Shown: in pieces, positions 17,485 to 33,370 of the stretch
Layout of the letters: each line of letters opens with the position of its first letter
How positions within the stretch are numbered: the stretch's first letter is position 1
Assembly: GCA_900542355.1 (NCBI GenBank)
Contig: UQNE01000002.1
Location: 56,957-120,956 of the forward strand
Origin: an uncultured Bacteroidales bacterium
Lineage (GTDB): Bacteria; Bacteroidota; Bacteroidia; Bacteroidales; Paludibacteraceae
DNA: 64,000 nt
Direction of reading: 5' to 3'
Position numbers and translations under genes: made by a program
The notes under the pieces: generated by a model
Told to the model about the DNA's origin: nothing
Database searches by the model: none
Seen by the model: only the letters and a program-made list of their open reading frames with translations

Positions 17485-18495
17485 ATGGCAGAAGAGAAAA
17501 AACAGCCCTCGGCAGACAAACTGAAAGCCCTGCAGTTGGCTATGGCGAAGATAGATAAGGATTTCGGCAAAGGAGCGATTATGAAACTCGGGGACGACAA
17601 AGTAGAGGATGTTCCCGTTATCTCCACCGGCAGTATTGGTCTGAATTTGGCTCTCGGCGTGGGCGGTTATCCGCGCGGGCGCGTCATCGAGATATACGGT
17701 CCGGAGTCTTCCGGTAAGACCACCTTGGCTATCCATGCTATGGCGGAGGTGCAGAAACAGGGTGGTATCGCTGCTATCATCGATGCCGAGCATGCCTTCG
17801 ATCGTTTTTATGCCGAGAAACTGGGCGTAGATACCGATAACCTGCTCATAGCCCAACCCGACTGCGGCGAGCAGGCATTGGAGATTGCCGACGAGTTGAT
17901 TCGTTCTTCTGCAGTCGATTTGGTAGTGGTGGACTCGGTGGCTGCACTGACCCCGAAAGCCGAGATAGAAGGCGATATGGGCGACAACAAACTGGGTCTG
18001 CAAGCCCGACTGATGTCGCAAGCCTTGCGCAAACTCACAGCGACTATCAACAAGACGCAAACCACTTGTATCTTTATCAACCAGTTGCGTGAGAAAATAG
18101 GTGTTATGTTTGGCAATCCCGAGACTACTACGGGCGGTAATGCGCTGAAATTCTATGCCAGTGTGCGTCTCGACATCCGCAAGATTGGTCAGATAAAAGA
18201 TGGCGATGAGGTGATCGGAAACCAAGTGCGCGTTAAGGTAATGAAAAACAAGGTGGCTCCCCCGTTCAAGAAAGCGGAGTTTGACCTGATGTTCAACGAA
18301 GGCATCTCCAAAGTGGGCGAGATTATCGACTTGGGCGTAGAGACCGAAGTGCTGAAAAAATCGGGTAGTTTCTACAGTTACGGCGATACCAAACTCGGGC
18401 AAGGGCGTGACGCGGTGAAGAAACTGCTGCGTGAAAATCCCGACCTAATGGACGAACTCGAGGCAAAGATAATGGAAAGTCTCAAAAAGAATTGA
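17485..18495 (+). CDS. recA: recombinase RecA
   Basis: [18 protein letters not shown] Walker A, plus the conserved L1/L2 region. Confidence 0.97.
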
Positions 18496-18549: not shown

Positions 18550-20052
18550 GTGGATTCGATACAACTGACACTCTCTCCGCAGGAAGCGCACGAGGCAGAG
18601 CAACGCTACAGGGTGGTAAAACGCTCGGTGGATGCTCGCCAACGCACGCTTAAGGTATTGCTTACCTTATTGCTTGATAATCAAGGTAATAAAGTGGAGC
18701 GAGATGCCCCAATTCCGTTGTATGAGCCGCCTGTATTCCAAGATGTACACCACGCCAAGCACACGGCACATATCATCGGTGCCGGTCCGGCAGGGTTGTT
18801 CGCAGCACTCACTCTGTTGGAGCATGGCATTCGCCCGATTATCTATGAGAGGGGCAAAGAGGTCAGTGCACGCAAAGTGGATATTGCCCGCCTCAACCGC
18901 AATCAGGGGCTGAACACCGAGAGCAACTACTGCTTCGGCGAGGGCGGTGCAGGCACTTTCTCCGACGGCAAACTATTCAGCCGAAGCAAGAAGCGGGGAA
19001 ACATGCAGCGTGTGATGGAATGGTTCCACTATTTCGGTGCGAAAGATAATGTCCTCTACGAGGCGCACGCTCATATAGGTAGCGATAAACTGCCCTCGCT
19101 CATCCGCTCCATGCGTGAGTGTATCATTGCCCACGGCGGGGAGATACACTTCGATACCTGCGTGGATAATGCTCTTTTTCAATCACTTACGCAGTCCGAC
19201 GAACCCATCATTCTCGCTATCGGGCACTCTGCGCACGACACCTATCGTATGCTCGCAGCCAATGGCGTGCGGTTGGAACCGAAAGGTTGCGCTATGGGGG
19301 TGCGTGTGGAGCATCCGCAATCGCTGATCAATCGACTGATGTACCACGACCAACCGCAGGAAATCATTGATATTGTGGGCAATGCGTCGTACTCACTGGT
19401 AACCCAAGCCGGGGGGCGCGGAGTCTATTCGTTCTGTATGTGTCCGGGCGGACATATCGTACCCGCAGGCAGCAGCGAAGAGAGTTGCGTGGTCAATGGT
19501 ATGTCGGCAAGCCGACGCAACTCGCCTTATGCCAACTCGGGCATCGTAGTGGAGATACGCCCCGAGGATGTGGCTGACGGACCGTGGTGCAAAGGGGAGA
19601 ATAGTCTGCCCACTTTGGCATTTCAAGAATGGCTCGAGCACGAGGCGTTCTTGCATGGAGCCGCTGAGAGTCAGGCACCTGCACAGCGATTGTGGGATTT
19701 TGTAGAGGGTAAAACAAGTCGCAACCTGCCGCCTTGCAGTTATTTGCCGGGCATCGTTTCGAGCCGATTAGACGAGTGGTTGCCAGACCTTATCGGCAAG
19801 CGTCTGCAACAAGGTTTTCGCGATTTCGACCGCAAGTATCGTGGCTTTCTGACCAACGAAGCAGTCATCCTCGGTGTAGAGAGCCGGAGTAGCAGTGCCG
19901 TGCGTATTCCGCGCGACCCCGAGACACTTCAATCAGTCTCCATGCCCAACCTCTACCCATGCGGAGAAGGCGCAGGCTACGCTGGAGGTATCACCTCTTC
20001 CGCACTCGACGGCATCAATGCCGCACTCAAGATAGCCGAAAAATATCAATAA
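18550..20052 (+). CDS. FAD-dependent oxidoreductase (COG2509-type uncharacterised FAD-dependent dehydrogenase)
   Basis: GAGPAGLFAAL dinucleotide-binding motif, GEGGAGTFSDGKL, and a C-terminal FAD-dependent-protein domain. Confidence 0.75.
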   Translation: MDSIQLTLSPQEAHEAEQRYRVVKRSVDARQRTLKVLLTLLLDNQGNKVERDAPIPLYEPPVFQDVHHAKHTAHIIGAGPAGLFAALTLLEHGIRPIIYERGKEVSARKVDIARLNRNQGLNTESNYCFGEGGAGTFSDGKLFSRSKKRGNMQRVMEWFHYFGAKDNVLYEAHAHIGSDKLPSLIRSMRECIIAHGGEIHFDTCVDNALFQSLTQSDEPIILAIGHSAHDTYRMLAANGVRLEPKGCAMGVRVEHPQSLINRLMYHDQPQEIIDIVGNASYSLVTQAGGRGVYSFCMCPGGHIVPAGSSEESCVVNGMSASRRNSPYANSGIVVEIRPEDVADGPWCKGENSLPTLAFQEWLEHEAFLHGAAESQAPAQRLWDFVEGKTSRNLPPCSYLPGIVSSRLDEWLPDLIGKRLQQGFRDFDRKYRGFLTNEAVILGVESRSSSAVRIPRDPETLQSVSMPNLYPCGEGAGYAGGITSSALDGINAALKIAEKYQ

Positions 20053-20057
20053 GAGAT

Positions 20058-22274
20058 ATGCACAACGCCAAGCAGATATGCTGTATGCTGATGTTTTTCT
20101 TGTTGAGTATCAGTAATATACAGAGTCAAACCGTTAAGCGAGACACACTGCTTGAAGACTTCTCTTCTGCCGAATGGATGCGCTACTCCAATTACACTTC
20201 GGCGGTACTCACCACGCAAAACAACATCACTTGGCACTTTGAGAATATGCAGGTCGCCCAAGTTGGCAAACTAACCAGCAAAGGATTGGTGTACTACTAC
20301 AATGTCGCTCGCACTTTTGGAAGAATAGAGACAAGCAAAATCAAGGGATTGCGCAAAATAACTTTCGATGTGGCGAGCAATCAAAGTTGTTCATTTATAA
20401 TCAGTTATAGTAATACAGGTAAAAGCAAGGAGTGGACAGAATGCACTCGCTATGCTCAAACAACCGGAATGAAAAGGGATAGCATTATCCTTCCCGAAAC
20501 CGGAGATTATTACATCAAGTTCTATATAGGTGGGTACGATGGTCGTTACTTTTATCTCGACAACATCTCTTTTTACACCGAGGAGACTGACCCCGACTAT
20601 GGTGAGCCAATGGATATTGTGGATTGGACAGAGAATGGTCTGACCCTCAATATGAATGGCTGTGCGCCGGAACAAGGCGTTTCCGTGGGACTGAACGGCG
20701 ACGCAGAACAGCCCATAGAGGAAGGCAACCGCTATTCTTTCTCGGGGAAAAACGATAGGACTTACTGTATCAGTGCACCCGCTTTGCAAAGTGGAGAAAA
20801 CCTGCAACTAAGTGTTCAATATGGTGATTATCAAGGCAATAAGTACGAGTCAAATCGCCGCTACCGCATTCCGTATCTCTACCAAGATGCTACGGTGAGC
20901 AAACTCTCGTTCCGCCCCGATGACGACATCGTTGTGCGTGGAAAGACCACTATCACCACCAATGTGGCGGTGCGCAATGTGTATGTTTATCCCGGTGGTG
21001 AACTGATAGTGAATAACGGGTACACTCTCTTGTGCGCCAATCTGTTCCTTCGCACCACTGCCAACCAATCGGCTGCCGCAAGCGGACAGATAAAAGCACA
21101 CCACACCTACTACACACGCATCGTGGCCGACAAAACGCACTATTTTCAGTTGGCTCTACCTGCCAAATCGCCTGTGCGACAGGTGGTTACCACTGCCGGT
21201 GATACTTGCCTATTGGATAAGCATTGGCGACTGAATACCTACGATACACAACTCCGCGCCGAGCAAGGCACTACCACCGACAACTGGGTGCGCTTCACGG
21301 GCGACACCCTACAGGCCTGCCAAGGCTACGCTATGCTGTCGGCTTCGCCCTACTATCGCGAGTACCTGTTTCCCATCTCGCCTGCTAAAACCGCAAGCAC
21401 TACGCTCGTTGTGCCTACTCAAGCCCCCAAAGGCGACATCGATGCACAGCACGATGGCTGGAACTACCTCTGCTCACCCTATCGGAGCGTGTATATTTGT
21501 ACTCCTGCAAGCGACATAGCAGACCGAATCTACATCTCCGAACTGCGCCCGGACGGCAATTCTTATTGGCAGCACATAGCCGATACCATCTATCCTGCCA
21601 AGCCTTTCTACTACCAATCGGCAACGAGCGGCAATCTCGTATTCGGAGAAATGCTGCACTTTGAATCGACTGTCAATCAGTCGGTTGCAGCACCAATGCT
21701 ACAAACGGACAGCGCCGCTGAGACAACGACACAATGGCTGCAACTGATGCTCCAAGATTCCCTTGGGCAAATCGACGAAAGCCATATTTACCTCCACCCG
21801 ACTCGTTTTGCGGCGGGGTATCAGATTGGCAAAGACCTGCTCAAACTGCGAGGAACGGGTGCACACCTGCTTTTGTACGCCATAATGCCCTATGGCGATT
21901 TGAGCGTCTGTGCCACAGCGGACAGCACGGCGGAGCGGCAAATCAACATTGGCTGTTATTTCGCCGCCAACGGCAAGCATACTATCCGCCTGCACAACCA
22001 AGCCGACACAGAGCGTTTAGCAGAGGTTCTTCTCGTTGATAATCAGGCCAATACACAAACCAACCTCTTGCAAGAGGACTATACCTTCACGGCTTCGCAA
22101 GGCGAATCGAAAGACCGCTTTGCCCTACGCTGTGTATTCCGACAAAAAGCAACACCTACCCGTATCGATACCGATAGTAGGGTAGGTGTCGCTACTAAAT
22201 TTCTTCGCTGCGGACAACTGTTCATCGTCCGTCAAGGCGGTGTCTATGATGCTCTCGGGCGCAAAGCGCACTAA
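20058..22274 (+). CDS. secreted protein, paralog of the C-terminal ~500-aa module of the 2368-aa T9SS protein; its T9SS CTD appears truncated after the YDxLGR motif
   Basis: Signal peptide MHNAKQICCMLMFFLLSISNIQSQ. DGWNYLCSPY and TIYPAKPFYYQ align with HGWNFVGSPY and VTIYPFSAYFVQ of the giant protein. The tail ...GGVYDALGRKAH ends 18 bp before the convergent murG stop. Start chosen at 20058 rather than the ORF-track 19959, which overlaps the upstream gene. Confidence 0.6.
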   Translation: MHNAKQICCMLMFFLLSISNIQSQTVKRDTLLEDFSSAEWMRYSNYTSAVLTTQNNITWHFENMQVAQVGKLTSKGLVYYYNVARTFGRIETSKIKGLRKITFDVASNQSCSFIISYSNTGKSKEWTECTRYAQTTGMKRDSIILPETGDYYIKFYIGGYDGRYFYLDNISFYTEETDPDYGEPMDIVDWTENGLTLNMNGCAPEQGVSVGLNGDAEQPIEEGNRYSFSGKNDRTYCISAPALQSGENLQLSVQYGDYQGNKYESNRRYRIPYLYQDATVSKLSFRPDDDIVVRGKTTITTNVAVRNVYVYPGGELIVNNGYTLLCANLFLRTTANQSAAASGQIKAHHTYYTRIVADKTHYFQLALPAKSPVRQVVTTAGDTCLLDKHWRLNTYDTQLRAEQGTTTDNWVRFTGDTLQACQGYAMLSASPYYREYLFPISPAKTASTTLVVPTQAPKGDIDAQHDGWNYLCSPYRSVYICTPASDIADRIYISELRPDGNSYWQHIADTIYPAKPFYYQSATSGNLVFGEMLHFESTVNQSVAAPMLQTDSAAETTTQWLQLMLQDSLGQIDESHIYLHPTRFAAGYQIGKDLLKLRGTGAHLLLYAIMPYGDLSVCATADSTAERQINIGCYFAANGKHTIRLHNQADTERLAEVLLVDNQANTQTNLLQEDYTFTASQGESKDRFALRCVFRQKATPTRIDTDSRVGVATKFLRCGQLFIVRQGGVYDALGRKAH

Positions 22275-22292
22275 GAGCAAACTGCTGATTTT

Positions 22293-23402
22293 CTACACTT
22301 TATGCTGAGCCAGGCGGATTACCTCCTCGGCGATACGCGTAGCCGAATCGGCTTGCGCCAAGGTCAGCACATGGTTGTGCAGTTGTTTCAGCCGCTCTTT
22401 ATTCTCAATCAGTGAGAGTGCAGTGGAAACCAACTGCTCTTTTGCCTCCACATCACGCACTAGCACCGCTGCATCTTTCTTCACCAAAGCCATCGCATTG
22501 TGGGTCTGATGGTCCTCCGCCACATTCGGCGAAGGCACCAAGATAGCAGGTTTGCCCAACAGGCACAACTCGCTGATACTGCTGGCTCCCGCACGCGAGA
22601 TAACCAAATCAGCCATGGCGTAGGTATCGGGCATATTGCTCAAGAATGGGGTAATCACCGATACCTCGGTGGTAGCAGGTAGGGTCTTGACGATGTCGTC
22701 GTAGTACGCCTTGCCCGTCTGCCAAATCAGTTGTACACCCGAGCAAACTAATTGGTTGTACCCGTTCTGAATAGCCTCATTGATAGTGCGTGCGCCCAGG
22801 CTGCCGCCGATAACCAACAGAATGGGTTTGTTGGGGTCGAACTGTACACCAAACTCCTTATTGAAGTAGTCCAGTCCTTCCTGTTTGCTGCCTTGCGTCA
22901 GGTTTTGCCGAACGGGGTTGCCCGTCAAGATAATTTTCTCTTTGGGGAAGAAACGCTCCATCCCCTCATAAGCCACGCATATCTTCGCTGCATCGTCTTT
23001 GAGCAGTTTGTTGGTAACGCCCGCAAAGCCGTTCTGCTCTTGCAGAAGAATAGGTATCCCCATCCGTGCCGCCACTTTCATTGCGGCTCCGCTGGCATAT
23101 CCGCCTACACCTACCCCCACATCGGGGCGGAACTCACGGATGACCTTCTTTGCCATACACATCGAGCGCATCAGGTCAATCAGTACGGAGATGTTCTTCC
23201 ACGGCTTGGCACGATTGAAGCCGCGCACAGGCAGTCCTACGATACGATACCCCGCTTGCGGTACACGCTCCATCTCCATTCGTCCCAGCGCACCTACAAA
23301 CAAGATGTCTGCTTTCGAGTCAAGTTGGCGCAACGCATTAGCGATACTCACGGCAGGGAAAATATGCCCGCCCGTTCCGCCTCCGGAAATAAGGTACTTC
23401 AT
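22293..23402 (-). CDS. murG: undecaprenyldiphospho-muramoylpentapeptide beta-N-acetylglucosaminyltransferase
   Basis: ISGGGTGGHIFPA N-terminus. GT28 family. Confidence 0.95.
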   Translation of the reverse strand: MKYLISGGGTGGHIFPAVSIANALRQLDSKADILFVGALGRMEMERVPQAGYRIVGLPVRGFNRAKPWKNISVLIDLMRSMCMAKKVIREFRPDVGVGVGGYASGAAMKVAARMGIPILLQEQNGFAGVTNKLLKDDAAKICVAYEGMERFFPKEKIILTGNPVRQNLTQGSKQEGLDYFNKEFGVQFDPNKPILLVIGGSLGARTINEAIQNGYNQLVCSGVQLIWQTGKAYYDDIVKTLPATTEVSVITPFLSNMPDTYAMADLVISRAGASSISELCLLGKPAILVPSPNVAEDHQTHNAMALVKKDAAVLVRDVEAKEQLVSTALSLIENKERLKQLHNHVLTLAQADSATRIAEEVIRLAQHKV

Positions 23403-23525: not shown

Positions 23526-24776
23526 TTACTCAACCTCGATGTCAGGTACATCGTTTTCGCTGGCATCGATGGTCGCTTTTTGGCGATCGAGCAACATACT
23601 CTGCTCGCGGCTGACGCACATCATTATCCCCAAATAGACGCTCGTTACCAATACGCTGGTTCCTCCCCTACTGATAAACGGCAACGGCTGTCCCGTAACG
23701 GGCATTATCCCGACAGCCACAGCCATTGACATCAGTGCCTGGCAGGTAATCATCAAAGCCAACCCCATCACCATCAGCATTGCAGACATGTCGGAGAACT
23801 TGGTGCTGGTAATACAGGCTCGCCCTAACAGCGACACATAGAGGAAAATCACAAAGATAGCACCTACCAATCCCGACTCCTCTACGATAATCGCAAAGAT
23901 ATAATCCGCAAACGCAAGTGGCAGATAATCACGCTCTTTGCTATTGCCGGGCAACACTCCGATAGGCGATATTCCTCCTCGTGCAATCGCCACATTGGCA
24001 TACACCTCCTGGCGATTGGCATCTGTGATTTTTACTTCTGCCGTTTTGTCGTCAGGCACACTACCACTCATCCATCTATCCATACGACTTATCCATGTGC
24101 TCGCACGCGAGAGAATGGGTAATTCTTTACCCTTCCGAACATAGCCAAAATCCGCTATACAAAAGCCCACCACAGCCACAACCGCTACAATCGCGGCCGT
24201 ACTTGCCCAAAATTTCCAAGGAATACGCCCCAACACCCACAAGAGGAATACTACAATACAAAGGAGAACGGCCGTGGAAAGATTGCTCACCATAATTGGA
24301 ATAGCCGCAAAAGCAGTAATACCCAGCGTCCAAAAAAAATACTTCTTTTTCTCCTTATCTGTCTTCGCCCGAGAGAGCAAATCTGCGACAACTATCACCA
24401 ACGACAACTTGACTAATTCCGATGGCTGGAAACGAACACCAAACAACTTCAGCCAGCGTCCCTCGCCGTTTATTTTTACTATAAAAGGGTTATTGGGAAT
24501 TAGTAGCGAGTAGACCATCACCAATGACACCACAAGCAAAGCATAGCCACCTATACGGACATATTGAGAAGGCAAAAACTGCAAGCCAAAGGCAACGACA
24601 ACGCCTATCAACATAAACGCAATTTGCCCACCGACGGTACCAAAAGGCGAATTGCTCTTATAGACCAGTGTACTTGATGCCGAAAACAGTGCCAAAGACG
24701 ACACAAAAATCAATAGGGCGAATATCGTCCAGAAAGTCGCGTCGGTATATTTCAGATTGGGAAATTTTAGTTTCAT
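23526..24776 (-). CDS. ftsW: peptidoglycan glycosyltransferase FtsW (SEDS family)
   Basis: 10-TM SEDS protein in the canonical dcw position. Confidence 0.9.
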   Translation of the reverse strand: MKLKFPNLKYTDATFWTIFALLIFVSSLALFSASSTLVYKSNSPFGTVGGQIAFMLIGVVVAFGLQFLPSQYVRIGGYALLVVSLVMVYSLLIPNNPFIVKINGEGRWLKLFGVRFQPSELVKLSLVIVVADLLSRAKTDKEKKKYFFWTLGITAFAAIPIMVSNLSTAVLLCIVVFLLWVLGRIPWKFWASTAAIVAVVAVVGFCIADFGYVRKGKELPILSRASTWISRMDRWMSGSVPDDKTAEVKITDANRQEVYANVAIARGGISPIGVLPGNSKERDYLPLAFADYIFAIIVEESGLVGAIFVIFLYVSLLGRACITSTKFSDMSAMLMVMGLALMITCQALMSMAVAVGIMPVTGQPLPFISRGGTSVLVTSVYLGIMMCVSREQSMLLDRQKATIDASENDVPDIEVE

Positions 24777-24804: not shown

Positions 24805-26163
24805 CTACAGACGGCGCACGGCTGCCATAAATTGGTCGCCTCGATCCTCGTATGACTTAAACAAATCGAAACTGGCGCAGCAAGGTGAGAGCAGTACCGT
24901 ATCGCCCTCATGCGCAGCACGATACGCACCCTCAACGGCATCGTGCAGGTTGTCGGTATCGATAATCGGCAGTCCGAACGAACCGAAATGCTCACGCAGT
25001 TTCTCGTTGTGCAACCCCATAAACACCAGGGTGTGGCATTTCTCACGCACCAAATCATCGATCTCCGAATAGTCGTTGCCCTTATCTTTTCCGCCCAAGA
25101 TGAGCACCGTCGGAGTGGTCATCGACTCCAACGCATACCAGCACGAATTGACATTGGTGGCTTTAGAATCGTTGATAAAACGCACACCACGCACCGTGGC
25201 TACATACTGCAGACGGTGCTCCACCCCGGCAAACTGCATCAGGCTCTCACGAATGACATCGTTTTTGATGTGCAGTATCTGTGCTGCCAACGATGCCGCC
25301 ATCGAGTTGAGTTGGTTGTGTTTTCCTTTCAAACTCAGTTGATCTACAGGCACTTGCAGCGGGTCAGATACATTCACAATCAAATTGTTCGCCTCTACCC
25401 ATGCCGCATTCACCCCGCCTATGTTGTCGGCAGATTGTGCCGGCGTGTCAAAGCCGAACGGGTAGAGTGTAGCCCCCGGACGGAGTTTGTGTATCTCGCG
25501 GTCAATCACCGGATCTTCCGACCAATAGATGAAAGCATCGTCCTTTGTTTGGTTTTGCGTAATGCGGAACTTAGCATTCACATAGTTCTGAAAATCAAAG
25601 CCATAGCGGTCGAGATGGTCGGGTGTAATATTCATCAAGATGGCTATGTTCGCACGAAAATCATACATATTGTCCAACTGGAACGACGACAACTCAATCA
25701 CATAGTAGTCGTGCTTCTCGTGCGCCACTTGCAGCGCAAGCGAGTTGCCGATATTACCGGCCAACCCTACATTTAGCCCCGCACGGCGAAGAATGTCGTA
25801 GATAAGCGAGGTCGTAGTGGTCTTGCCGTTGGAACCCGTGATGCAGATCATCTTAGCATCGGTGTAGCGTGCGGCAAACTCAATCTCCGATAAGATGGGC
25901 GTGCCTTGGGCTTGCAACTTCAGAATCATCGGCGCAGTGAGCGGAATACCCGGACTCTTGATTACCTCGTCGGCATTGAGGATAAGAGACTCGGTATGCT
26001 GTCCGCCCTCCCACGCAATGGCGTTTTGGTCCAGCAACGCACGATAGGCGGGCTTGATCTCGCCCATATCACTGACAAAGACATCAAAGCCTTTTTCTTT
26101 GGCGAGAATGGCGGCTCCCGTCCCCGACTCGCCCGCTCCAAGCACTACAATTCGTTTTTTCAT
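24805..26163 (-). CDS. murD: UDP-N-acetylmuramoylalanine--D-glutamate ligase
   Basis: VLGAGESGTGAA N-terminus and ITGSNGKTTTT P-loop. Confidence 0.95.
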   Translation of the reverse strand: MKKRIVVLGAGESGTGAAILAKEKGFDVFVSDMGEIKPAYRALLDQNAIAWEGGQHTESLILNADEVIKSPGIPLTAPMILKLQAQGTPILSEIEFAARYTDAKMICITGSNGKTTTTSLIYDILRRAGLNVGLAGNIGNSLALQVAHEKHDYYVIELSSFQLDNMYDFRANIAILMNITPDHLDRYGFDFQNYVNAKFRITQNQTKDDAFIYWSEDPVIDREIHKLRPGATLYPFGFDTPAQSADNIGGVNAAWVEANNLIVNVSDPLQVPVDQLSLKGKHNQLNSMAASLAAQILHIKNDVIRESLMQFAGVEHRLQYVATVRGVRFINDSKATNVNSCWYALESMTTPTVLILGGKDKGNDYSEIDDLVREKCHTLVFMGLHNEKLREHFGSFGLPIIDTDNLHDAVEGAYRAAHEGDTVLLSPCCASFDLFKSYEDRGDQFMAAVRRL

Positions 26164-26189: not shown

Positions 26190-26779
26190 ATTAATTACCA
26201 TATAATTTACCATTAATTTCTATCTCGACCACAAGCATGGTCTTGCATAGAGTATTAATTATCATTTAATTTATCATTAACGCCATCCCTCTAAATCCAT
26301 CATGCTTCATCTATTATTTGCTATATACAACTTGCATATCTTTATTCACTAAATCACAAATGTTTGTTTTTGGGTCATATACCCAACGCTCACCTACAAG
26401 ACTTTTTTCACCAAAATTGATCAACAAACCTATTGGTTTCTTCGTCAATCGGAGATAATTACATAATTGTGCTCTGTGATCAGAGGTCAAGTGCTCTACA
26501 GATTTGAGTTCTATGACAATATCGCCAACTAAAAAATCTACCTTATATTTTTTCTCCAATAGGTGGTTCTTGTACCGAATAGGTATTTCCTGCTCGCGCT
26601 CGTTTGGAATATTCATATCATTGAGTTCTACTTGAAGAGCCTCTTGGTAGATTGGTTCAAGCAAGCCGAACCCCAACTCATGATGTACTTCCATGGCTGC
26701 ACCTATTATGTTGTAAATCTGCTGTTTATATTCTTGTATAGAGAACATAATTAATGAATAATTATATGTTAATTATATG
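26190..26779 (-). mobile_element. putative miniature cassette carrying a GxxExxY gene, bounded by imperfect AT-rich inverted repeats (26190-26219 and 26749-26779) and inserted between murD and mraY
   Basis: rc(26190-26219)=aaattaatggtaaattatatggtaattaat versus 26749-26779 aattaatgaataattatatgttaattatatg, ~23/29 identical. A second direct copy of the left repeat lies at 26254-26280. The cassette is AT-rich relative to the flanking dcw genes. Confidence 0.35.
26314..26748 (-). CDS. GxxExxY protein (PD-(D/E)XK nuclease-like small protein family)
   Basis: GFGLLEPIYQEAL is the G-x-x-E-x-x-Y signature. Also DFLVGDIVIELKSVE, consistent with a PD-(D/E)xK core. 144 aa is the typical size. Confidence 0.8.
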   Translation of the reverse strand: MFSIQEYKQQIYNIIGAAMEVHHELGFGLLEPIYQEALQVELNDMNIPNEREQEIPIRYKNHLLEKKYKVDFLVGDIVIELKSVEHLTSDHRAQLCNYLRLTKKPIGLLINFGEKSLVGERWVYDPKTNICDLVNKDMQVVYSK

Positions 26780-26792
26780 TTTATAAAGCCAA

Positions 26793-28064
26793 TCAGCGGA
26801 TTTTGAGGGTAAGGATGGTGAGGGCGGCAAGCAGGAGCGAAACAATACAGAAACGCAGGACTATCTTGGTTTCGTGTTGCAAGTCGGACGAACCTTTGAA
26901 CTTCACAACACAAGTGGGGTCGTTGCGTAGCACCTGCTCTATCGATGTGCGGTAGTGGTCGTGTAGCGGGGTGCGTTTCCATACGCGGATATGTTTGCCG
27001 CGCTTCTTGGCGAACTTGTACACCTGTGTTTGCACAATCACTGAGATACTCTCCATGAGGAATACCCCACACAAGAGCGGCACCATCAGTTCTTTGTGGA
27101 TAATCACGGCGCACACACCGATGATACCACCGATAGTAAGGCTGCCCGTATCGCCCATGAATATCTGTGCCGGGAAACCATTGTACCACAAGAAACCTAC
27201 CAGTGCACCCACAAAAGTAGCCAAAAAGACTACCAGTTCTTCGCTGCCCGGTATGTACATCACATCGAAATACTCTGCCCACACATAACTGCCGCTCACA
27301 TACGCCAGCACTATCAGCGCGACGCCGATGATAGCGGAGTTGCCCGCACACATCCCGTCCATACCGTCGTTGAGGTTGGCGCCGTTGCTTACTGCCGCCA
27401 CCACAAAGATAGTGAGCAATACGAAGAATATCCAACCTGCACGGTACTTGTTTTCCTCGCCCAGGAAAGAGAACAAGTCGGCATAGTTGAAGTTGTGGTG
27501 TTTAACGAAGGGGATAGTTGTCTGAGTGGATTTCACCGCAGGGGTCTTCTCGACCATGGTGATATTGTTCTCTACTCGGGTATTAACCACCTCATTCATA
27601 GTTACTTCGGGGCTGTAGCGGAGGGTCAATCCCACTATCAGCCCGAGTGTAACCTGTCCCGCTATCTTCACCCAACCGTTGAGGCCGTCTTTGTTGTGGC
27701 GGAAAGTCTTGATATAGTCGTCAGCAAAGCCTAATGCACCGAGGATGAGCGTGGTGATAATCATCAGAATCATATAGATATTGCTCAGTTTGCCAAACAG
27801 CAAACAGGGCACTAAGATGCTTACTATGATTACTATTCCGCCCATTGTAGGTACGCCTTTTTTGGCTACATTGAACGGGTCGGTCTTCTCATCTCGCTGT
27901 GTCTCGGAGATGTGCTTGCGCTTCATCAGACGAATGAAGAACTTGCCGAAGTAGATACTCACCAACAGTGCCAAGACGCCGGCGATGATAGCCCGAAATG
28001 AGATATAGGTCATCAAGCGCGCCCCGGGCAGTTGGTTGAAATATGTGAATAGCGAATAAAACAT
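26793..28064 (-). CDS. mraY: phospho-N-acetylmuramoyl-pentapeptide-transferase
   Basis: NLNDGMDG and DTGS motifs, with the Bacteroidetes-type insertion. Confidence 0.95.
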   Translation of the reverse strand: MFYSLFTYFNQLPGARLMTYISFRAIIAGVLALLVSIYFGKFFIRLMKRKHISETQRDEKTDPFNVAKKGVPTMGGIVIIVSILVPCLLFGKLSNIYMILMIITTLILGALGFADDYIKTFRHNKDGLNGWVKIAGQVTLGLIVGLTLRYSPEVTMNEVVNTRVENNITMVEKTPAVKSTQTTIPFVKHHNFNYADLFSFLGEENKYRAGWIFFVLLTIFVVAAVSNGANLNDGMDGMCAGNSAIIGVALIVLAYVSGSYVWAEYFDVMYIPGSEELVVFLATFVGALVGFLWYNGFPAQIFMGDTGSLTIGGIIGVCAVIIHKELMVPLLCGVFLMESISVIVQTQVYKFAKKRGKHIRVWKRTPLHDHYRTSIEQVLRNDPTCVVKFKGSSDLQHETKIVLRFCIVSLLLAALTILTLKIR

Positions 28065-28167: not shown

Positions 28168-29619
28168 TTAGCAGTATTTGCGAATTACTTCGTGGTCATC
28201 AAAGTGGTGCTTTACTCCTTTGATGATCTGATAATCCTCGTGTCCTTTGCCTGCCACCAGGATGACATCTCCCGCTTGGGCGAGGGTGCAAGCCGTCTGT
28301 ATGGCGGTTTGGCGGTCTTCGATGACAAGTGTTTGCTTAAGTTCTTCCTCTGACAGACCTGCTTTCATATCATTGAGGATGTCTGCGGGTTCCTCATCGC
28401 GCGGGTTATCTGAGGTGAGAATCAGTTGGTCTGAGCCTCGTTTGGCGATAGCCGCCATCATCGGGCGTTTACCCTTATCGCGGTTGCCGCCGCAGCCCAC
28501 TACCGTGATAAGACGAGTACCGGGTTTGCGTATCTCATTGATAGTCTGAATCACATTGTCCACTGCATCAGGTGTATGCGCATAATCTACTATCGCCGTC
28601 CAACCTTTGGGGCTGCGAATCGTCTCGAAGCGTCCGTTGACGGGGTGCAATGTGGAGAGTACGCGCAATACCTCGGTGCTATTGAAGCCGAGTGATACGG
28701 CTGCTCCGTAGATACAGAGCAGGTTTGATACATTGAACCGTCCTACCAGTGGCACGAATACCTCTTGGCGATTGACCTCCAGCAGCATCCCCTCAAAGCC
28801 TTCCTCTAATATCTTGGCGTGGAAGTCGGCTACTGCGCGTGTAGAATAGGTGCGCACCTGTGCTTTGCAGTTCTGCGTCATCACGAGGCCGTTCTTGTCG
28901 TCGATATTGGTGATAGCGAAGGCTGTTTTCTTGAGGTGGTCGAATAGACGCTTTTTGGTGTCGCGATAGTTGTCGAATGTCTTATGATAATCGATGTGGT
29001 CGCGTGTCAGATTGGTAAACAAAGCCCCGTCGAAGTCGAGCCCTGCGATGCGCTCCTGTGCGATAGCGTGGCTACTCACCTCCATAAACGCATACTCGCA
29101 GCCGGCATCTACCATACGGCGCAGCAGTCCGTTCAACTCGATTGCGTCGGGCGTGGTGTGGGTGGCGGGTATTGCTTCGTCTTCCACATAGTTGACTACC
29201 GTAGAGAGCAGTCCGGCTTTATGTCCGAGTCCGCGTACCAACTTGTAGAGCAGTGTGGCGATCGTGGTCTTTCCGTTGGTGCCGGTTACTCCCACGAGTG
29301 TCAGTTGTCGGCTCGGGTCTCCAAACCAACGGCTTGCTATCAGGCCGAGAGCATGGTCGGTATTCTCCACTAAGATATAGGTGGTACCTTCTGTCGTCTC
29401 GGGCAGATAGTCGGTATTGCTCAGCACGATTGCCGCTGCACCTTTGGCTACACAAGAGGCGATAAAAGTATGCCCGTCCACCGCTGTTCCTGCTTGCGCA
29501 ACGAACAAGTTGCCCGCTGCTACCTTGCGAGAATCGAAGTGTATGTCGGTGATCTCCTTATTGGTGGAGCCCACTATCTTTTTTACCTCCAGAGGTTTTA
29601 TCAGTTCACTAAGTATCAT
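28168..29619 (-). CDS. murE: UDP-N-acetylmuramoyl-L-alanyl-D-glutamate--2,6-diaminopimelate ligase
   Basis: [11 protein letters not shown]-loop and DNPR motif. Start set at the internal Met ([10 protein letters not shown]), which matches the usual MurE N-terminus. The ORF-track start at 29736 overlaps ftsI by 50 nt. Confidence 0.9.
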
Positions 29620-29686: not shown

Positions 29687-31492
29687 TTATTTTTCGTTTC
29701 GTACAAGTGTCTTATTGCCTTCTTTGTCGAAGACATAGCATCCGGTGTTTGCCATAACCTTCTCTGCTATTAGGCGCACCACTATTCCGCAATGCGTGCC
29801 TGCATCGTGCCCGCCATAAATAGGGTCGTCGATGACACAGATACAGGTGTATTGCGGGTCTTCCTCGGGAAAGTATCCCACGAAAGTTAGGCGGTGGCGG
29901 TTTTTGTTGTATCGCCCGTTGAGGAGCAGTTGCGCCGTACCTGTCTTGCCGGCGATATGCACCTTATCGCTTTTTGCCTTGATCTCTTTTTTCTTATTAA
30001 CAGATGCCGTACCGAGTTGGTCATTCCATACAACATCGTGCAGTGCGCTTTTGATATCGCTGAGCGTAGAAGAACGGCAGATAGACGATTTGACTGTCTC
30101 TGTAGTGTATCGATGTACGGTCTCGCCATTCTGCTGTATCTCTTTGACCAATACGGGGCGTATCATCTTTCCGTCGTTGGCAATGGCGTTGTAAAACATC
30201 ATTATCTGCATAGGTGTCATCTCGACCGAGTAGCCATAAGACATCTTGCTGAGCGTAACCGTATCTTTGGGTACAATGATGAGTGCTTGCTGCGCACCCG
30301 GGATCTCGCAATAGACGCTATCCATGATACCTGTTTTGGCGATACGATTGACAAACTTCTTGGCACTCCCCTCGTAGGCACGGGTGATGAGTTTTGCCAT
30401 TGCGATATTGCTTGATACAGCCAAGGCATCATGCACGGTATAGACTGTATCTGCCGCATGCGCATCCGTATGTATGGCATCGAAGTACTTCCAGCCTTTG
30501 CTACTGACGCTTACGGTGTCGTTGATACTTATCTTACCATCGTCTATGGCGGCGATGAGGGCTATTGTTTTGAAGGTAGAGCCTGGTTCGATACGAGTAA
30601 CGGCGTGGTTTTGTCTCTCGGAATAAGTGCCATCGGAGTTCTTATCGAGGTTGCTGATGGCTTTGATCTCTCCCAACTTGGTTTCCATCAAAACACAACA
30701 TCCCCACTGTGCTTCGGTGCTCAGAAGGCGTTGGCGCAAGGTTTTCTCTACGATGTCTTGGAGGTCGGTATCGATGGTGGTGAGGATGTCCATTCCGTCT
30801 TGCGCCTCTTCGATAGTAACCTTTTCCATTCTTCCTCCGATACGCTGCAACGCTGCTATACCGTCGATACCGCGCAGTTGCTCCTCAAAGGCTTTTTCTA
30901 AGCCCGTTATTCCCACATCCTTATTTTGGTCGGTGCTGCCTATGGTGCGGGACGCCAGATTGCCAAACGGCTTAATACGCCGGTGTTTAGGTTCAAAGAA
31001 GACGCCACTTTTGTACTTTCCCTTGTTGATAGGGTAGGCTTTTTCCAGTTTGCGGCGTTGCATATAGTTGATACGCTTGTCCGATATTTTAAGGCGTGTA
31101 GTCCCTTTGTGGTACGCTTTTGTAATGCTCTGTTTGTATTCTGCAGCCGAATACTCGGCTATCACCTCACTTAGGAGGATAGAGAGCGAGTCGATGCTCT
31201 CATGGAACAATTCGCCGTTTTTCTGATGCAGAGCCGGGACGGAAGCATCCATAAAGACATCGTATCGTGGCATGCTGCTTGCCAGGAGGTTGCCATTGCA
31301 GTCGAGTATGTTTCCTCGTGTGGCTCGAACGGTGAGATCTACCGGTTTCTGCTTTTCGGCAATAGCCAACCACCTATCACTATCGAACCTCTGAATACGG
31401 ACAATCTTGACAACGACACAAATGAACCCTATGAGGAGGGCTATAAATATCATAGCAAAGCGGAATATGGTATCTTTTTGTTCTTCTGACAT
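29687..31492 (-). CDS. ftsI: penicillin-binding protein 3-like transpeptidase FtsI
   Basis: N-terminal TM helix, PBP dimerisation domain, and STFK, SSN and KTGT motifs. Confidence 0.9.
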
Positions 31493-31617: not shown

Positions 31618-31941
31618 TTATCGGCGCGTTATCTTAATGGGGGGAGTGGTATTATCCCTCAGGTTGCTGCCTTTCTGCTCGAGCGTTGCGGCTATCTCGG
31701 ACTGCTTGGTAGTGCTGACCAGTTGCGCACTGATAGTAAGGTATTCATACTTAGCATCGAGCAATTCTTTTTGCATATCCGAGACGCTATGTTGGAGAGA
31801 AGCAGCGTGATAGCCCATATAGATATACAGCATTATCAGCACCAACCAAAGAATAAGCAACTTGCTGTGTTTACGCCATAGGCTATGGAGTTTTTCTCCA
31901 TTGAGCCAACTTTGTATATTTTGGGTTGTTATCTTGGGCAT
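31618..31941 (-). CDS. ftsL: FtsL-like cell division protein (single-pass)
   Basis: 107 aa with one TM helix and a coiled coil. Lies between rsmH and ftsI, the conserved position. Confidence 0.65.
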   Translation of the reverse strand: MPKITTQNIQSWLNGEKLHSLWRKHSKLLILWLVLIMLYIYMGYHAASLQHSVSDMQKELLDAKYEYLTISAQLVSTTKQSEIAATLEQKGSNLRDNTTPPIKITRR

Positions 31942-31952
31942 AGGTGCGTTTG

Positions 31953-32915
31953 TTATCGTTTTTCGGCCACTCTGAGTTTGGCACTGCGGCTTCGCGGGTT
32001 ACGCTCGACCTCTTCGGGAGAGGCAGTCAGTCCTTTTTCGATCAGGCGGAAGGGCGTGAGTATATTGCCGTAGAAATCTTTTTCGATTTCCCCTTCGAGG
32101 TTGCCAGAGCGTAGGAAGTTCTTGACGAGTCTATCTTCGAGCGAGTGGTAGGTAAGGACTGCGATGCGTCCGCCGGGGCGGAGCATATCTCGTGCGGCGA
32201 CCAACATCTCGCGCAGGGCTGCGAGTTCGTCGTTGACCTCCATGCGTAGGGCTTGGAATAGTCGTGCCAAGTCTTTCTTGGCCATAGTAGGTATGTCGAT
32301 TTCGCCGTTGGTGATGGTGCAAGCAGGCGTATGCAAGGCACAGGCGACGAGTTGCTCTGTGCGCAAGATAGGTTGCTGTGCACGGCAACGCACGATACTC
32401 TTGGCAAGGTTTTTGGCGTTGCGCATTTCGCCGTATAGATATAGTACGCGCGCGAGTTCGTCTTCGGAGTAGGTATTGACGATGTCTGCCGCATTGCGTT
32501 TGGCGGCTTGGTTCATGCGCATATCGAGCGGTCCGGGAAATCGGAAACTAAAGCCTCGTTGCGCCTCGTCGAAGTGGTGAAAACTAACTCCCAGGTCGGC
32601 CAATAGTCCGTCTATCTGTGGTACTCCGTAGTAGTCCATAAAGTTGCGCAGGTAGCGGAAGTTGCTATGTACGAAGTGCCATTGCGGGTTATCGATGAGC
32701 GATTGCGGTGTGCCGTGCTTTTGCTGCGCATTGTGGTAGGCGTCGAGGTCCTGGTCGAAGGAGAATAGTTGTCCGCCGTCGGTAAGGTGGGACATTATTG
32801 CTTTGGAGTGTCCGCCTCCGCCGAAGGTAACATCGACATAAGTGCCGTCGGGCTGAATGTTCAGTCCGTCGATGGTGGGTTGTAGCAGTGCGGGTATGTG
32901 ATAGATAGTGTCCAT
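31953..32915 (-). CDS. rsmH: 16S rRNA (cytosine1402-N4)-methyltransferase
   Basis: MDTIYHIPALL...DVTFGGGGHS. Start set at the internal Met so that its ATG overlaps the mraZ stop (TAATG). The 85-aa Arg-rich N-terminal extension in the ORF track is rejected. Confidence 0.9.
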   Translation of the reverse strand: MDTIYHIPALLQPTIDGLNIQPDGTYVDVTFGGGGHSKAIMSHLTDGGQLFSFDQDLDAYHNAQQKHGTPQSLIDNPQWHFVHSNFRYLRNFMDYYGVPQIDGLLADLGVSFHHFDEAQRGFSFRFPGPLDMRMNQAAKRNAADIVNTYSEDELARVLYLYGEMRNAKNLAKSIVRCRAQQPILRTEQLVACALHTPACTITNGEIDIPTMAKKDLARLFQALRMEVNDELAALREMLVAARDMLRPGGRIAVLTYHSLEDRLVKNFLRSGNLEGEIEKDFYGNILTPFRLIEKGLTASPEEVERNPRSRSAKLRVAEKR

Positions 32916-33370
32916 TATTCCGTTTTGGCTTTCATCTTTTGTCTGATGCGGCTTGCCAAGTCTTTTTGGTCGATTCGTTTGTCGGCGAATGTAGCGGGGT
33001 TCCACAAGGCAAAGCGGTCGAGCATACCTACGAACAGCACATCTTGTTGGGCGTTGATAGTTTCTAAGTTCTTCTTTTGTAGGAGGATACGACCTTGTGT
33101 ATCGAGGTCGAGGAACTCGGCGTCGGACATAAACTGCATGAGTAGCATTTGGTCTTCCGGATCCCATTCATCAAGGGCTTGGCGCAGTTGCCCTACCTTG
33201 TCGTTCCATACCTGCTCGGGGTAGAAAATAAGGCATTCGTTGTCGGTATCACGGCGCATAACGAGGTGTTTGCTTTCCGCCTCGTTGAGTATTTTGCGAT
33301 AGGCTGCGGGGACGAATATGCGCCCTTTCTCGTCCGCCCGAGCCTCGATATTGCCAATGAATGTACTCAT
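32915..33370 (-). CDS. mraZ: transcriptional regulator MraZ
   Basis: Duplicated SpoVT/AbrB-like halves, e.g. DEKGRIFVPA and LDTQGRILL. Confidence 0.9.
   Translation of the reverse strand: MSTFIGNIEARADEKGRIFVPAAYRKILNEAESKHLVMRRDTDNECLIFYPEQVWNDKVGQLRQALDEWDPEDQMLLMQFMSDAEFLDLDTQGRILLQKKNLETINAQQDVLFVGMLDRFALWNPATFADKRIDQKDLASRIRQKMKAKTE

Follow-up and report, generated by a model that had tools for sequence, protein, structure and literature searches.

A dcw cluster ending at murG beside a convergent secreted-protein gene in an uncultured gut Bacteroidales lineage

Why does the dcw cluster of an uncultured Bacteroidales bacterium stop at murG, with a gene for a secreted protein running into it from the opposite strand, when the Bacteroidales reference order is contiguous through ...ftsW-murG-murC-ftsQ-ftsA-ftsZ (P. 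gingivalis PG0575–PG0584; PMC4236598)? The original prediction for the window (the whole stretch of 64,000 nucleotides analysed here) was that a single rearrangement had both split the cluster and clipped a T9SS sorting domain from the neighbouring protein. Our results point elsewhere: the junction is very probably a stable, inherited end of the dcw cluster in this uncultured gut Bacteroidales lineage, an ordinary lineage-specific gene order in which both terminal genes are intact.

The murG junction and the genes around it

Gene order was confirmed as first described. On the minus strand, mraZ-rsmH-ftsL-ftsI-murE-mraY-(GxxExxY/PDDEXK_3)-murD-ftsW-murG are co-linear (Pfam, NCBIfam and gene calls on identical contigs), the cluster ends at murG without a contiguous murC-ftsQ-ftsA-ftsZ, and the plus-strand neighbour runs convergently towards murG, the two stops lying 18 bp apart at the coordinates first given. 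The features of this region are as follows:

17485–18495, plus strand: recA (Pfam RecA, 4.7e-139), opening the recA / FAD-dependent / 738-aa block that runs into murG
18550–20052, plus strand: FAD-dependent protein of the FAD-depend_C family (PF21688, 2.6e-65), with 5 bp between its end and the probable start of the 738-aa gene
20058–22274, plus strand: gene for the 738-aa secreted, predicted all-beta protein (database gene calls; the earlier 771-aa ORF begins at 19959)
22275–22292, no strand: 18-bp spacer between the convergent stops (from sequence; the same in 5/5 gene maps shown of 23 contigs)
22293–23402, minus strand: murG, 369 aa, the last dcw gene in the lineage (TIGR01133, PF03033, PF04101)
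23526–24776, minus strand: ftsW (PF01098, 6.5e-57)
24805–26163, minus strand: murD (Mur_ligase_M, Mur_ligase_C and MurD_N domains)
26314–26748, minus strand: GxxExxY / PD-(D/E)XK family gene between mraY and murD (TIGR04256, 2e-39; PF13366, 1.6e-37)
26793–28064, minus strand: mraY (PF00953)
28168–29619, minus strand: murE, 483 aa in public assemblies (gene calls with Mur_ligase domains; GTNGKT motif)
29687–31492, minus strand: ftsI, with domains for PBP dimerisation and transpeptidation (identified by Pfam on the identical gene of contigs L001–L005)
31618–31941, minus strand: ftsL (PF19579 on the identical gene)
31953–32915, minus strand: rsmH (mraW) (PF01795 on the identical gene)
32915–33370, minus strand: mraZ, the first cluster gene (PF02381 on the identical gene)

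The stop codon of murG occupies 22293–22295, and that of the convergent plus-strand gene (TAA) 22272–22274. The neighbour had been described as a 771-aa secreted protein; a plus-strand ORF of that length exists when counted from the first ATG (19959–22274), but translation most probably begins at the ATG at 20058 (MHNAKQICC..., a signal peptide), for a product of 738 aa. Public assemblies call the gene at this length, and the 771-aa version overlaps the FAD-dependent gene ending at 20052. On the other side of the spacer, MurG is full length by TIGR01133 (288.9 bits, cut-off 250.25; model positions 7–352 of 353) and, at 369 aa against 370 aa in sister species, shows no truncation at the junction. 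Within the cluster, the GxxExxY gene varies even within the species, being missing from contig L001 and present in L002–L005, and it is found at the same position in four other species (L022–L024, L033).

The secreted protein and its C-terminal tail

An N-terminal signal peptide opens the 738-aa protein; a jelly-roll of CBM/MAM-like fold, further beta-sandwiches and a disordered linker follow, and a short tail closes it at the C-terminus, where it ends ...GGVYDALGRKAH. Its AlphaFold2 model (pLDDT 85.8, pTM 0.83) was matched by Foldseek over part of its length to the jelly-rolls of CBM4, CBM22, CBM61, MAM and the gingipain K2 'cleaved adhesin' domain, with a Foldseek probability of 1.0 and E-values down to 1.5e-6, at 10–16% sequence identity and with no family HMM match for the 738-aa protein; we take the matched part to be the N-terminal jelly-roll, as aligned ranges were not reported. 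The rest of the model had no close structural match in Foldseek, Pfam gave no match to the protein, and NCBIfam gave one sub-threshold match, unrelated to T9SS. Taken together, sequence and model predict a surface or secreted, all-beta, CBM/MAM-like product that is complete.

This completeness speaks against a clipped sorting domain. Orthologues of 722–745 aa cover 98–100% of the query, and the protein is not shorter than they are at its murG-facing end, where the C-terminal architecture is identical. Homologues numbered 78 in all, from which eight fragments or truncated calls were set aside; in every one of the 70 with an intact C-terminus (30–100% identity), the protein finishes 0–9 residues past (Y/F)DxxG, and homologues in unrelated genomic contexts, away from murG, have the same end point. 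Unrelated proteins share the tail as well. Two features are compared below:

22137–22271, plus strand: C-terminal tail module, residues 694–738, FRQKATPTRIDTDSRVGVATKFLRCGQLFIVRQGGVYDALGRKAH (tail alignment across the family and unrelated proteins)
39881–46987, plus strand: 2368-aa surface protein, the comparator (TIGR04183, 23.2 bits; cut-off 23)

The tail reads PTxI(D/E), a linker, KxLxNGxLYIxRxGxxYDxxG and then 0–9 residues to the end. Some 40 residues align cleanly between the 738-aa family and unrelated proteins, and in the AlphaFold2 model the tail forms three short strands at 713–731 after a disordered linker (698–711). It also closes unrelated secreted proteins (BspA-type LRR, InlB-repeat, Flg_new_2, Y_phosphatase3 (phosphatase-like) and others), always at the very C-terminus; at least five distinct architectures with signal peptides carry it, and K or R is frequently its last residue. 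The module is matched by no model in Pfam or NCBIfam, a literature search with its sequence strings found no paper, and a profile search with the tail alignment returned 82 candidates and 14 short fragments, numbers that are no measure of the tail's spread. This uncatalogued tail is the mildly novel item at the locus, and a domain model for it may be worthwhile.

Two observations that had suggested a clipped domain were borne out. The last residues of the 738-aa protein, through the (V/I)(Y/F)DxxGRx of the tail, resemble motif D of the type-A T9SS C-terminal domain (CTD; TIGR04183/PF18962), and BLASTP (E = 4e-9) relates its C-terminal region to the one in the 2368-aa protein, in an alignment that ends exactly at VYDxLGR, past which the 2368-aa protein runs for a further 38 residues into a CTD matched by TIGR04183. 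The two proteins share a homologous penultimate beta-sandwich and linker, followed in the 738-aa protein by the tail and in the 2368-aa protein by a complete type-A T9SS sorting domain (last 119 aa: PF18962, 25.6 bits, below the cut-off of 27; DUF6383, 20.6 bits, below 23.7). Unlike the seven-strand sandwich of 70–80 residues that makes up a type-A CTD, however, the structured part of the tail spans ~25 residues, and it has neither motif E nor an HMM match: TIGR04183, TIGR04131, NF033708 and PF18962 gave no match to the 738-aa protein at permissive thresholds (E ≤ 0.1 for the whole protein and E ≤ 10 for its last 98 residues, with the 2368-aa protein as positive control). The protein stops 3 residues after the motif-D-like YDALGR. 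We do not claim homology between the tail and the first half of the type-A CTD, since hhalign against the CTD of the 2368-aa protein aligned 10 columns at a probability of 16%.

One further reading is limited to the protein and can stand beside an inherited junction: the tail could be an anciently shortened type-A sorting domain that still works as a minimal signal for export or anchoring, through a motif-D-like hairpin and a terminal basic residue, which would make the 738-aa protein T9SS cargo. We consider this rather unlikely. Its modular, strictly C-terminal placement on at least five signal-peptide-bearing architectures, the YDxxGRx(V) shared with motif D and the frequent K or R at the end are consistent with such a role; the lineage appears to have a T9SS, to judge from the type-A CTD on the 2368-aa protein, and one relative carries gldK/L/M and porP ~7–10 kb from a member of the 738-aa family. 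In HBP35, moreover, the last 22 residues, which hold motifs D and E, are enough for secretion (PMC10202324). Against this, type-A cargo need their last 13 residues, with conserved lysines, to be secreted (PMC10202324), yet the last ~13 residues of such cargo have no counterpart in the 738-aa protein, motif E is absent, and the hhalign comparison with a real CTD was poor. A broader reading, which we consider unlikely, makes the tail a so far undescribed signal for sorting or anchoring in gut Bacteroidales, with a minimal T9SS signal missed by the current type A/B/C models as one option; if the tail were a minimal T9SS signal, counts of T9SS cargo in these lineages would be underestimates.

Separation of murC-ftsQAZ from murG

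Set beside the canonical Bacteroidales cluster of P. gingivalis W83 (PG0575–PG0584), the genes from mraZ to murG are alike in content, order and orientation, whereas the cluster here ends at murG, with no murC or ftsQAZ within 10 kb downstream here or at any of 80 related loci, and carries a GxxExxY nuclease-family gene between mraY and murD. Scanned in all frames, the 64-kb window gave no motif signature of FtsZ or MurC; phmmer with the E. coli MurC, Ddl, FtsQ, FtsA and FtsZ queries gave no match there, and the 10 kb flanking the window on each side likewise yielded no murC, ftsQ, ftsA or ftsZ. A solitary 454-aa MurC/Mpl-like ligase lies ~5.6 kb past the right window end, scoring below the cut-offs of both NCBIfam equivalog models. 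The same phmmer queries were run against all ORFs of the window and of 97 loci, with the E. coli locus, included as a positive control, as the sole match.

Related species gave the same picture. FtsZ, FtsA, FtsQ, Ddl and canonical MurC were detected by motif scans and phmmer within reach after murG in none of 80 loci, mostly MAG contigs and mostly labelled Paludibacteraceae or Bacteroidales, with at least 5 kb of sequence downstream of murG in 63/80 and less than 5 kb in 17/80. As murC and ftsQAZ are missing after murG from all 80, we infer that the split is family-wide and old, family membership being read from the titles of nearby MAG records, and gene order indicates an ancient loss, one not confined to this junction. 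The flank itself is variable: the genes following murG differ widely among species (a HAD-like gene, GAPDH, SerRS or a UppS-BamA-OmpH-OmpH-MFS-MurF block, the last occurring near murG in both orientations), and ftsW lies directly upstream of murG in 60 of the 74 loci having upstream sequence, with murG detached from ftsW in 14 related species.

Fragmented dcw clusters are found in other bacterial lineages, where a conserved core is retained and some members lie elsewhere in the genome. Here too the core is kept together, whereas the break falls at murG|murC and is a family-level trait within an order where the reference genomes have the cluster complete; a literature search found no published description of such a family-level break in Bacteroidales. 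Variation in dcw gene order has been reviewed (PMC8871954), and in V. spinosum both murC and murB are located outside the cluster (PMC1845146).

The junction is shared beyond this genome. In sister species L006, L008, L010 and L013–L016, recA, the FAD-dependent gene and an orthologue of the 738-aa gene converge on murG, the FAD-dependent gene adjoining the 738-aa gene in all of them; identities are 86–88% for MurG, 94–96% for RecA and 48–60% for the 738-aa orthologue, and the two stops lie 2 bp apart in six of these species and 107 bp apart in the seventh. In relatives, murG therefore ends alike and the secreted protein has an orthologue of full length, the observation that the original prediction itself had named as its refutation.

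Upstream of murG, an AT-rich stretch is conserved among the sister species and weakly shared with the window.

A recent breakpoint at about 22275–22292, which would have split the dcw cluster and cost the 738-aa protein some 35 residues at the end of a type-A T9SS sorting domain, is on this evidence highly improbable. It would account for a protein that ends at a motif-D-like sequence, and for an alignment with the 2368-aa protein that halts where the latter continues into its CTD, but the junction is common to sister species whose 738-aa protein has diverged to about 50–60% identity, the end point is shared by all intact family members, including those away from murG, the same terminal module is found on unrelated proteins, and murC-ftsQAZ are missing after murG throughout the family. 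That a chimeric contig was joined between murG and the 738-aa gene has the very short spacer and nothing else in its favour, and can to all intents be discarded, because gene order and the 18-bp spacer recur in 5/5 gene maps shown of 23 other metagenome contigs with this murG, which come from several samples, Hadza gut among them, and from more than one assembler (contig names of the MEGAHIT k141/k127/k119 and SPAdes NODE types), with junction flanks 92–100% identical across the five, and the junction is present in different species too. Two NCBI MAGs, GCA_902461235.1 and GCA_022766285.1, carry other genes of the window.

A probably inherited junction and its possible transcript ends

Under the inherited-junction explanation, murC, ftsQ, ftsA and ftsZ would have parted from murG in a common ancestor, leaving the family with a cluster running from mraZ to murG only, and the DNA just past murG would have been rearranged many times since that split. 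In the genus-level group to which this organism belongs, a conserved plus-strand recA / FAD-dependent / 738-aa block would flank murG, its 738-aa gene converging on murG with 2–18 bp between stops (107 bp in one sister species), and the natural C-terminus of the encoded protein would be a short modular tail that merely resembles motif D of the type-A CTD.

An attractive story is thereby corrected, with no recent breakpoint, no clipped sorting domain and no misassembly, a correction that matters little in itself. It documents one uncultured gut Bacteroidales family with a dcw cluster ending at murG, in which rearrangement has recurred at the murG flank and some species have a solitary murG. For annotation, it means that proteins ending ...YDxxGR(xx) in these genomes are to be read as complete, and not as truncated T9SS cargo.

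As the spacer is so short, each transcript would have to end inside or just past the 3' end of the opposing gene, and a stem-loop straddling the stop may help. One candidate was found:

22251–22278, no strand: imperfect palindrome GCTCTCGGGCGCAAAGCGCACTAAGAGC that extends across the 738-aa gene's stop codon (in MFE and centroid folds of both strands)

This palindrome possibly forms a compact stem-loop common to both convergent transcripts, as predicted by folding. The region folds no better than shuffles (z = −0.2 and −0.45), a T-run lies ~10 nt away, and a terminator consensus scan found no site in the 18-bp spacer. In the sister species, a different, putative 7-bp stem extends across both stops and is followed by TTTT(T)(T).

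Gene order at the murG junction

The dcw genes of the window lie on the minus strand in the order mraZ-rsmH-ftsL-ftsI-murE-mraY-GxxExxY-murD-ftsW-murG, as originally predicted: Pfam and NCBIfam identified MurG, FtsW, MurD, the GxxExxY/PD-(D/E)XK protein and MraY, and gene calls on identical public contigs added MurE, FtsI, FtsL, RsmH and MraZ. MurG matched TIGR01133 at 288.9 bits (cut-off 250) over model positions 7-352 of 353, and lies 123 bp from ftsW. The convergent neighbour does stop 18 bp from the murG stop:

19959-22274, plus strand, open reading frame in its 771-aa reading, TAA stop at 22272-22274 (ORF list and sequence)
22275-22292, 18-bp spacer between the two stop codons (sequence)
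22293-23402, minus strand, murG (TIGR01133)

The position and stop of this neighbour were correctly read, but its length probably was not, since the 771-aa frame runs into the FAD-dependent gene before it, which stops at 20052; the start is likely the ATG at 20058 (MHNAKQICCMLMFFLLSISNIQSQ..., a signal peptide), giving a product of 738 aa, as called in public assemblies. Given gaps of 54 bp (recA to FAD gene) and 5 bp (FAD gene to 738-aa gene), and synteny across species, the three genes may be co-transcribed.

Signatures of MurC and FtsZ were absent from every frame of the 64-kb window, and phmmer with E. coli MurC, Ddl, FtsQ, FtsA and FtsZ as queries found none of them there, bearing out the observation that murC-ftsQ-ftsA-ftsZ is not contiguous with murG; the remaining large open reading frames are unrelated genes. 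The only related gene seen was a solitary MurC/Mpl-like ligase ~5.6 kb past the right-hand edge of the window:

Locus L093, 16791-18155, plus strand, 454-aa Mur ligase, TIGR01082 227 bits, TIGR01081 188 bits

Both scores fall below the curated cut-offs (335 for MurC TIGR01082, 389 for Mpl TIGR01081), and comparable genes are present in L024, L026 and L057; the ligase may be the MurC of this lineage, an Mpl or neither. The GxxExxY gene (26314-26748, minus strand) varies in presence within the species: locus L001 lacks it (between 7055 and 7240) with flanking genes 100% identical to the window, and in four further species (L022-L024, L033) a ~60% identical copy occupies this position.

Age and conservation of the junction

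The original prediction also proposed that a rearrangement breakpoint at 22270-22300 had split the dcw cluster and clipped its neighbour, with misassembly as a caveat. An assembly artefact is ruled out. On the 23 contigs examined, drawn from independent assemblies of metagenomes that differ in sample and assembler and include Hadza gut, the exact MurG sequence was present, and all five gene maps shown from these carried the same 18-bp spacer and order (SecDF, DUF1232, recA, FAD gene, 738-aa gene converging on murG, ftsW...). Two NCBI MAGs of this species, GCA_902461235.1 and GCA_022766285.1, contain further genes of the window.

A recent breakpoint is refuted by relatives that share the murG terminus and a full-length orthologue of the neighbour. 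In sister species, orthologues P0019, P0034 and P0052 (about 50-58% identity) stand in the same block of recA, FAD gene, orthologue and convergent murG, and a genome-collection scan with MurG alignment added five further species representatives, L013-L017 (MurG 86-88%, RecA 94-96% identical). The distance between stops is 2 bp in six sister species and 107 bp in one. Upstream of murG these species carry an AraC-type regulator and a polysaccharide-utilisation locus, not ftsW; since murG nevertheless still adjoins the 738-aa orthologue, the pair was kept together while the remaining dcw cluster moved off. A recent breakpoint between the two would predict the opposite. The junction predates the species, and its gene order is ordinary, conserved and specific to the lineage. 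In L017 (1468-3682, minus strand) the orthologue is split into two overlapping ORFs of 171 and 605 aa, probably a frameshifted pseudogene or sequencing error.

In all, the scan yielded 80 loci at species level, with MurG 68-88% identical; almost every one bears the title Paludibacteraceae bacterium or Bacteroidales bacterium, and 63 have at least 5 kb of sequence past murG. FtsZ, FtsA, FtsQ, Ddl and canonical MurC were found in none of the 80 by signature motifs or by phmmer with E. coli queries, which recovered the E. coli dcw locus as positive control. In contrast, murC-ftsQ-ftsA-ftsZ directly follows murG in the Bacteroidales reference P. gingivalis (...ftsW-murG-murC-ftsQ-ftsA-ftsZ, PG0579-PG0584; PMC4236598). 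The break behind murG is thus an old trait of the family, making the window a new example of already known dcw fragmentation, and rearrangement has recurred on the downstream side of murG. Genes after murG vary widely by species (HAD-like gene, GAPDH, seryl-tRNA synthetase, PLP enzyme, large surface proteins). An adjoining block of eight genes (OMP-like, UppS, BamA, OmpH, OmpH, MFS, MurF, coiled-coil protein) lies downstream in one orientation in L063, L069, L082, L084, L087 and L088 and inverted in L027, L036, L040, L043, L044 and L048, which points to recurrent inversion.

Among the 74 loci with sufficient upstream sequence, 60 keep mraZ...ftsW-murG contiguous, and in 14 murG stands alone, detached from ftsW (loci listed for this arrangement: L006, L008, L010, L014-L016, L031, L045, L057, L062, L067, L069, L082-L084, L087, L088). 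In sister species the ~35-bp stretch preceding murG is a conserved AT-rich repeat (TTAATTGTTAATTCTTAATTGTTACTTG), expanded to a tandem array in L015.

With convergent stops 2-18 bp apart, neither transcript would be able to end in intergenic DNA. An imperfect palindrome (22251-22278) straddles the stop codon of the 738-aa gene; the junction in the window folds no better than shuffles, and a terminator consensus scan found no site in the spacer. In sister species with the 2-bp gap (L006, L010, L013-L016; e.g. L016:11100-11130), a 7-bp stem covers both stops. Read in the direction of the 738-aa gene, a T-run follows that is complementary to the Lys codons ending murG, and the two together may constitute a terminator embedded in coding sequence.

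The C-terminus of the 738-aa protein

The proposed loss of a type IX secretion (T9SS) sorting domain, clipped ~35 residues short, is contradicted by the homologues. Of the 78 returned, 70 retain an intact C-terminus, and each of these stops 0-9 residues past a (Y/F)DxxG motif (e.g. ...KILLDGAIYVVRHGEWFDLLGRRR, ...KFLYNGHVYIIREGKVYDILGQVVEL, ...KILYNDHIYILRNGSIYDITGRRCEIK), down to ~30% identity and in members away from murG (L011, L012, unrelated contexts). T9SS type A, B and C models did not match the 738-aa protein even at permissive thresholds; Pfam gave no match, and NCBIfam one sub-threshold match unrelated to T9SS. Type-A cargo depend on motif E together with the final ~13 residues (PMC10202324), and no member of the 738-aa family has them.

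The likeness to the 2368-aa surface protein of the window holds in part. The C-terminal regions align (BLASTP E = 4e-9) over a shared beta-sandwich and linker as far as VYDxLGR, but the tail, the ~40-residue C-terminal module of the 738-aa protein, aligned with the C-terminal domain (CTD) of the longer protein over only 10 profile columns (16% probability). The 2368-aa protein runs 38 residues past VYDxLGR and scored 23.2 bits against TIGR04183 (cut-off 23) and 25.6 bits against PF18962, just below Pfam's 27-bit cut-off. One pre-terminal domain thus occurs with two distinct C-terminal endings:

21915-22271, plus strand, C-terminal region of the 738-aa protein, sharing the beta-sandwich and linker that are penultimate in the 2368-aa protein
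39881-46987, plus strand, 2368-aa Listeria-Bacteroides-repeat protein, ending in a complete type-A CTD, with a weak DUF6383 match there too

For the 738-aa protein, AlphaFold2 gave a confident all-beta model (pLDDT 85.8, pTM 0.83) with a disordered linker (698-711) and three short strands (713-731). Foldseek matched part of it, taken to be an N-terminal jelly-roll domain, to CBM4, CBM22, CBM61, MAM and gingipain K2 adhesin domains at 10-16% identity, suggesting a binding or adhesin-like surface protein.

GCA_963615285.1 encodes a distant homologue of 937 aa (L012:1-4105), 35% identical, with porP/sprF, a gldK-like gene, gldL and gldM some 7-10 kb away. A related genome thus has T9SS genes, although their closeness to the homologue may be coincidental.

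A recurrent C-terminal tail

A motif scan of ORFs across the examined loci placed the tail at the extreme C-terminus of unrelated signal-peptide proteins:

Window, 22137-22271, tail of the 738-aa protein itself, for comparison
L029:11674-12642 and L080:5071-7344, BspA-type LRR proteins (motif scan)
L077:11108-16550, tandem trio directly after murG: InlB B-repeat (Flg_new_2), Y_phosphatase3-like and a third gene
L035:11938-12927 (minus strand), L091:3-653 and L068:2-616, other tail-bearing ORFs (motif scan)

No Pfam or NCBIfam model spans the tail, and none of the papers searched contains its motif strings. The tail is a module in its own right, and an alignment of twenty examples gives a clean pattern of PTxI(D/E), a variable linker and KxLxNGxLYIxRxGxxYDxxG, then 0-9 residues. 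The residual curiosity of the locus is this uncatalogued tail, which might serve as a sorting or anchoring signal not described before, although we consider a sorting role unlikely. The last residues of the tails are often K or R.
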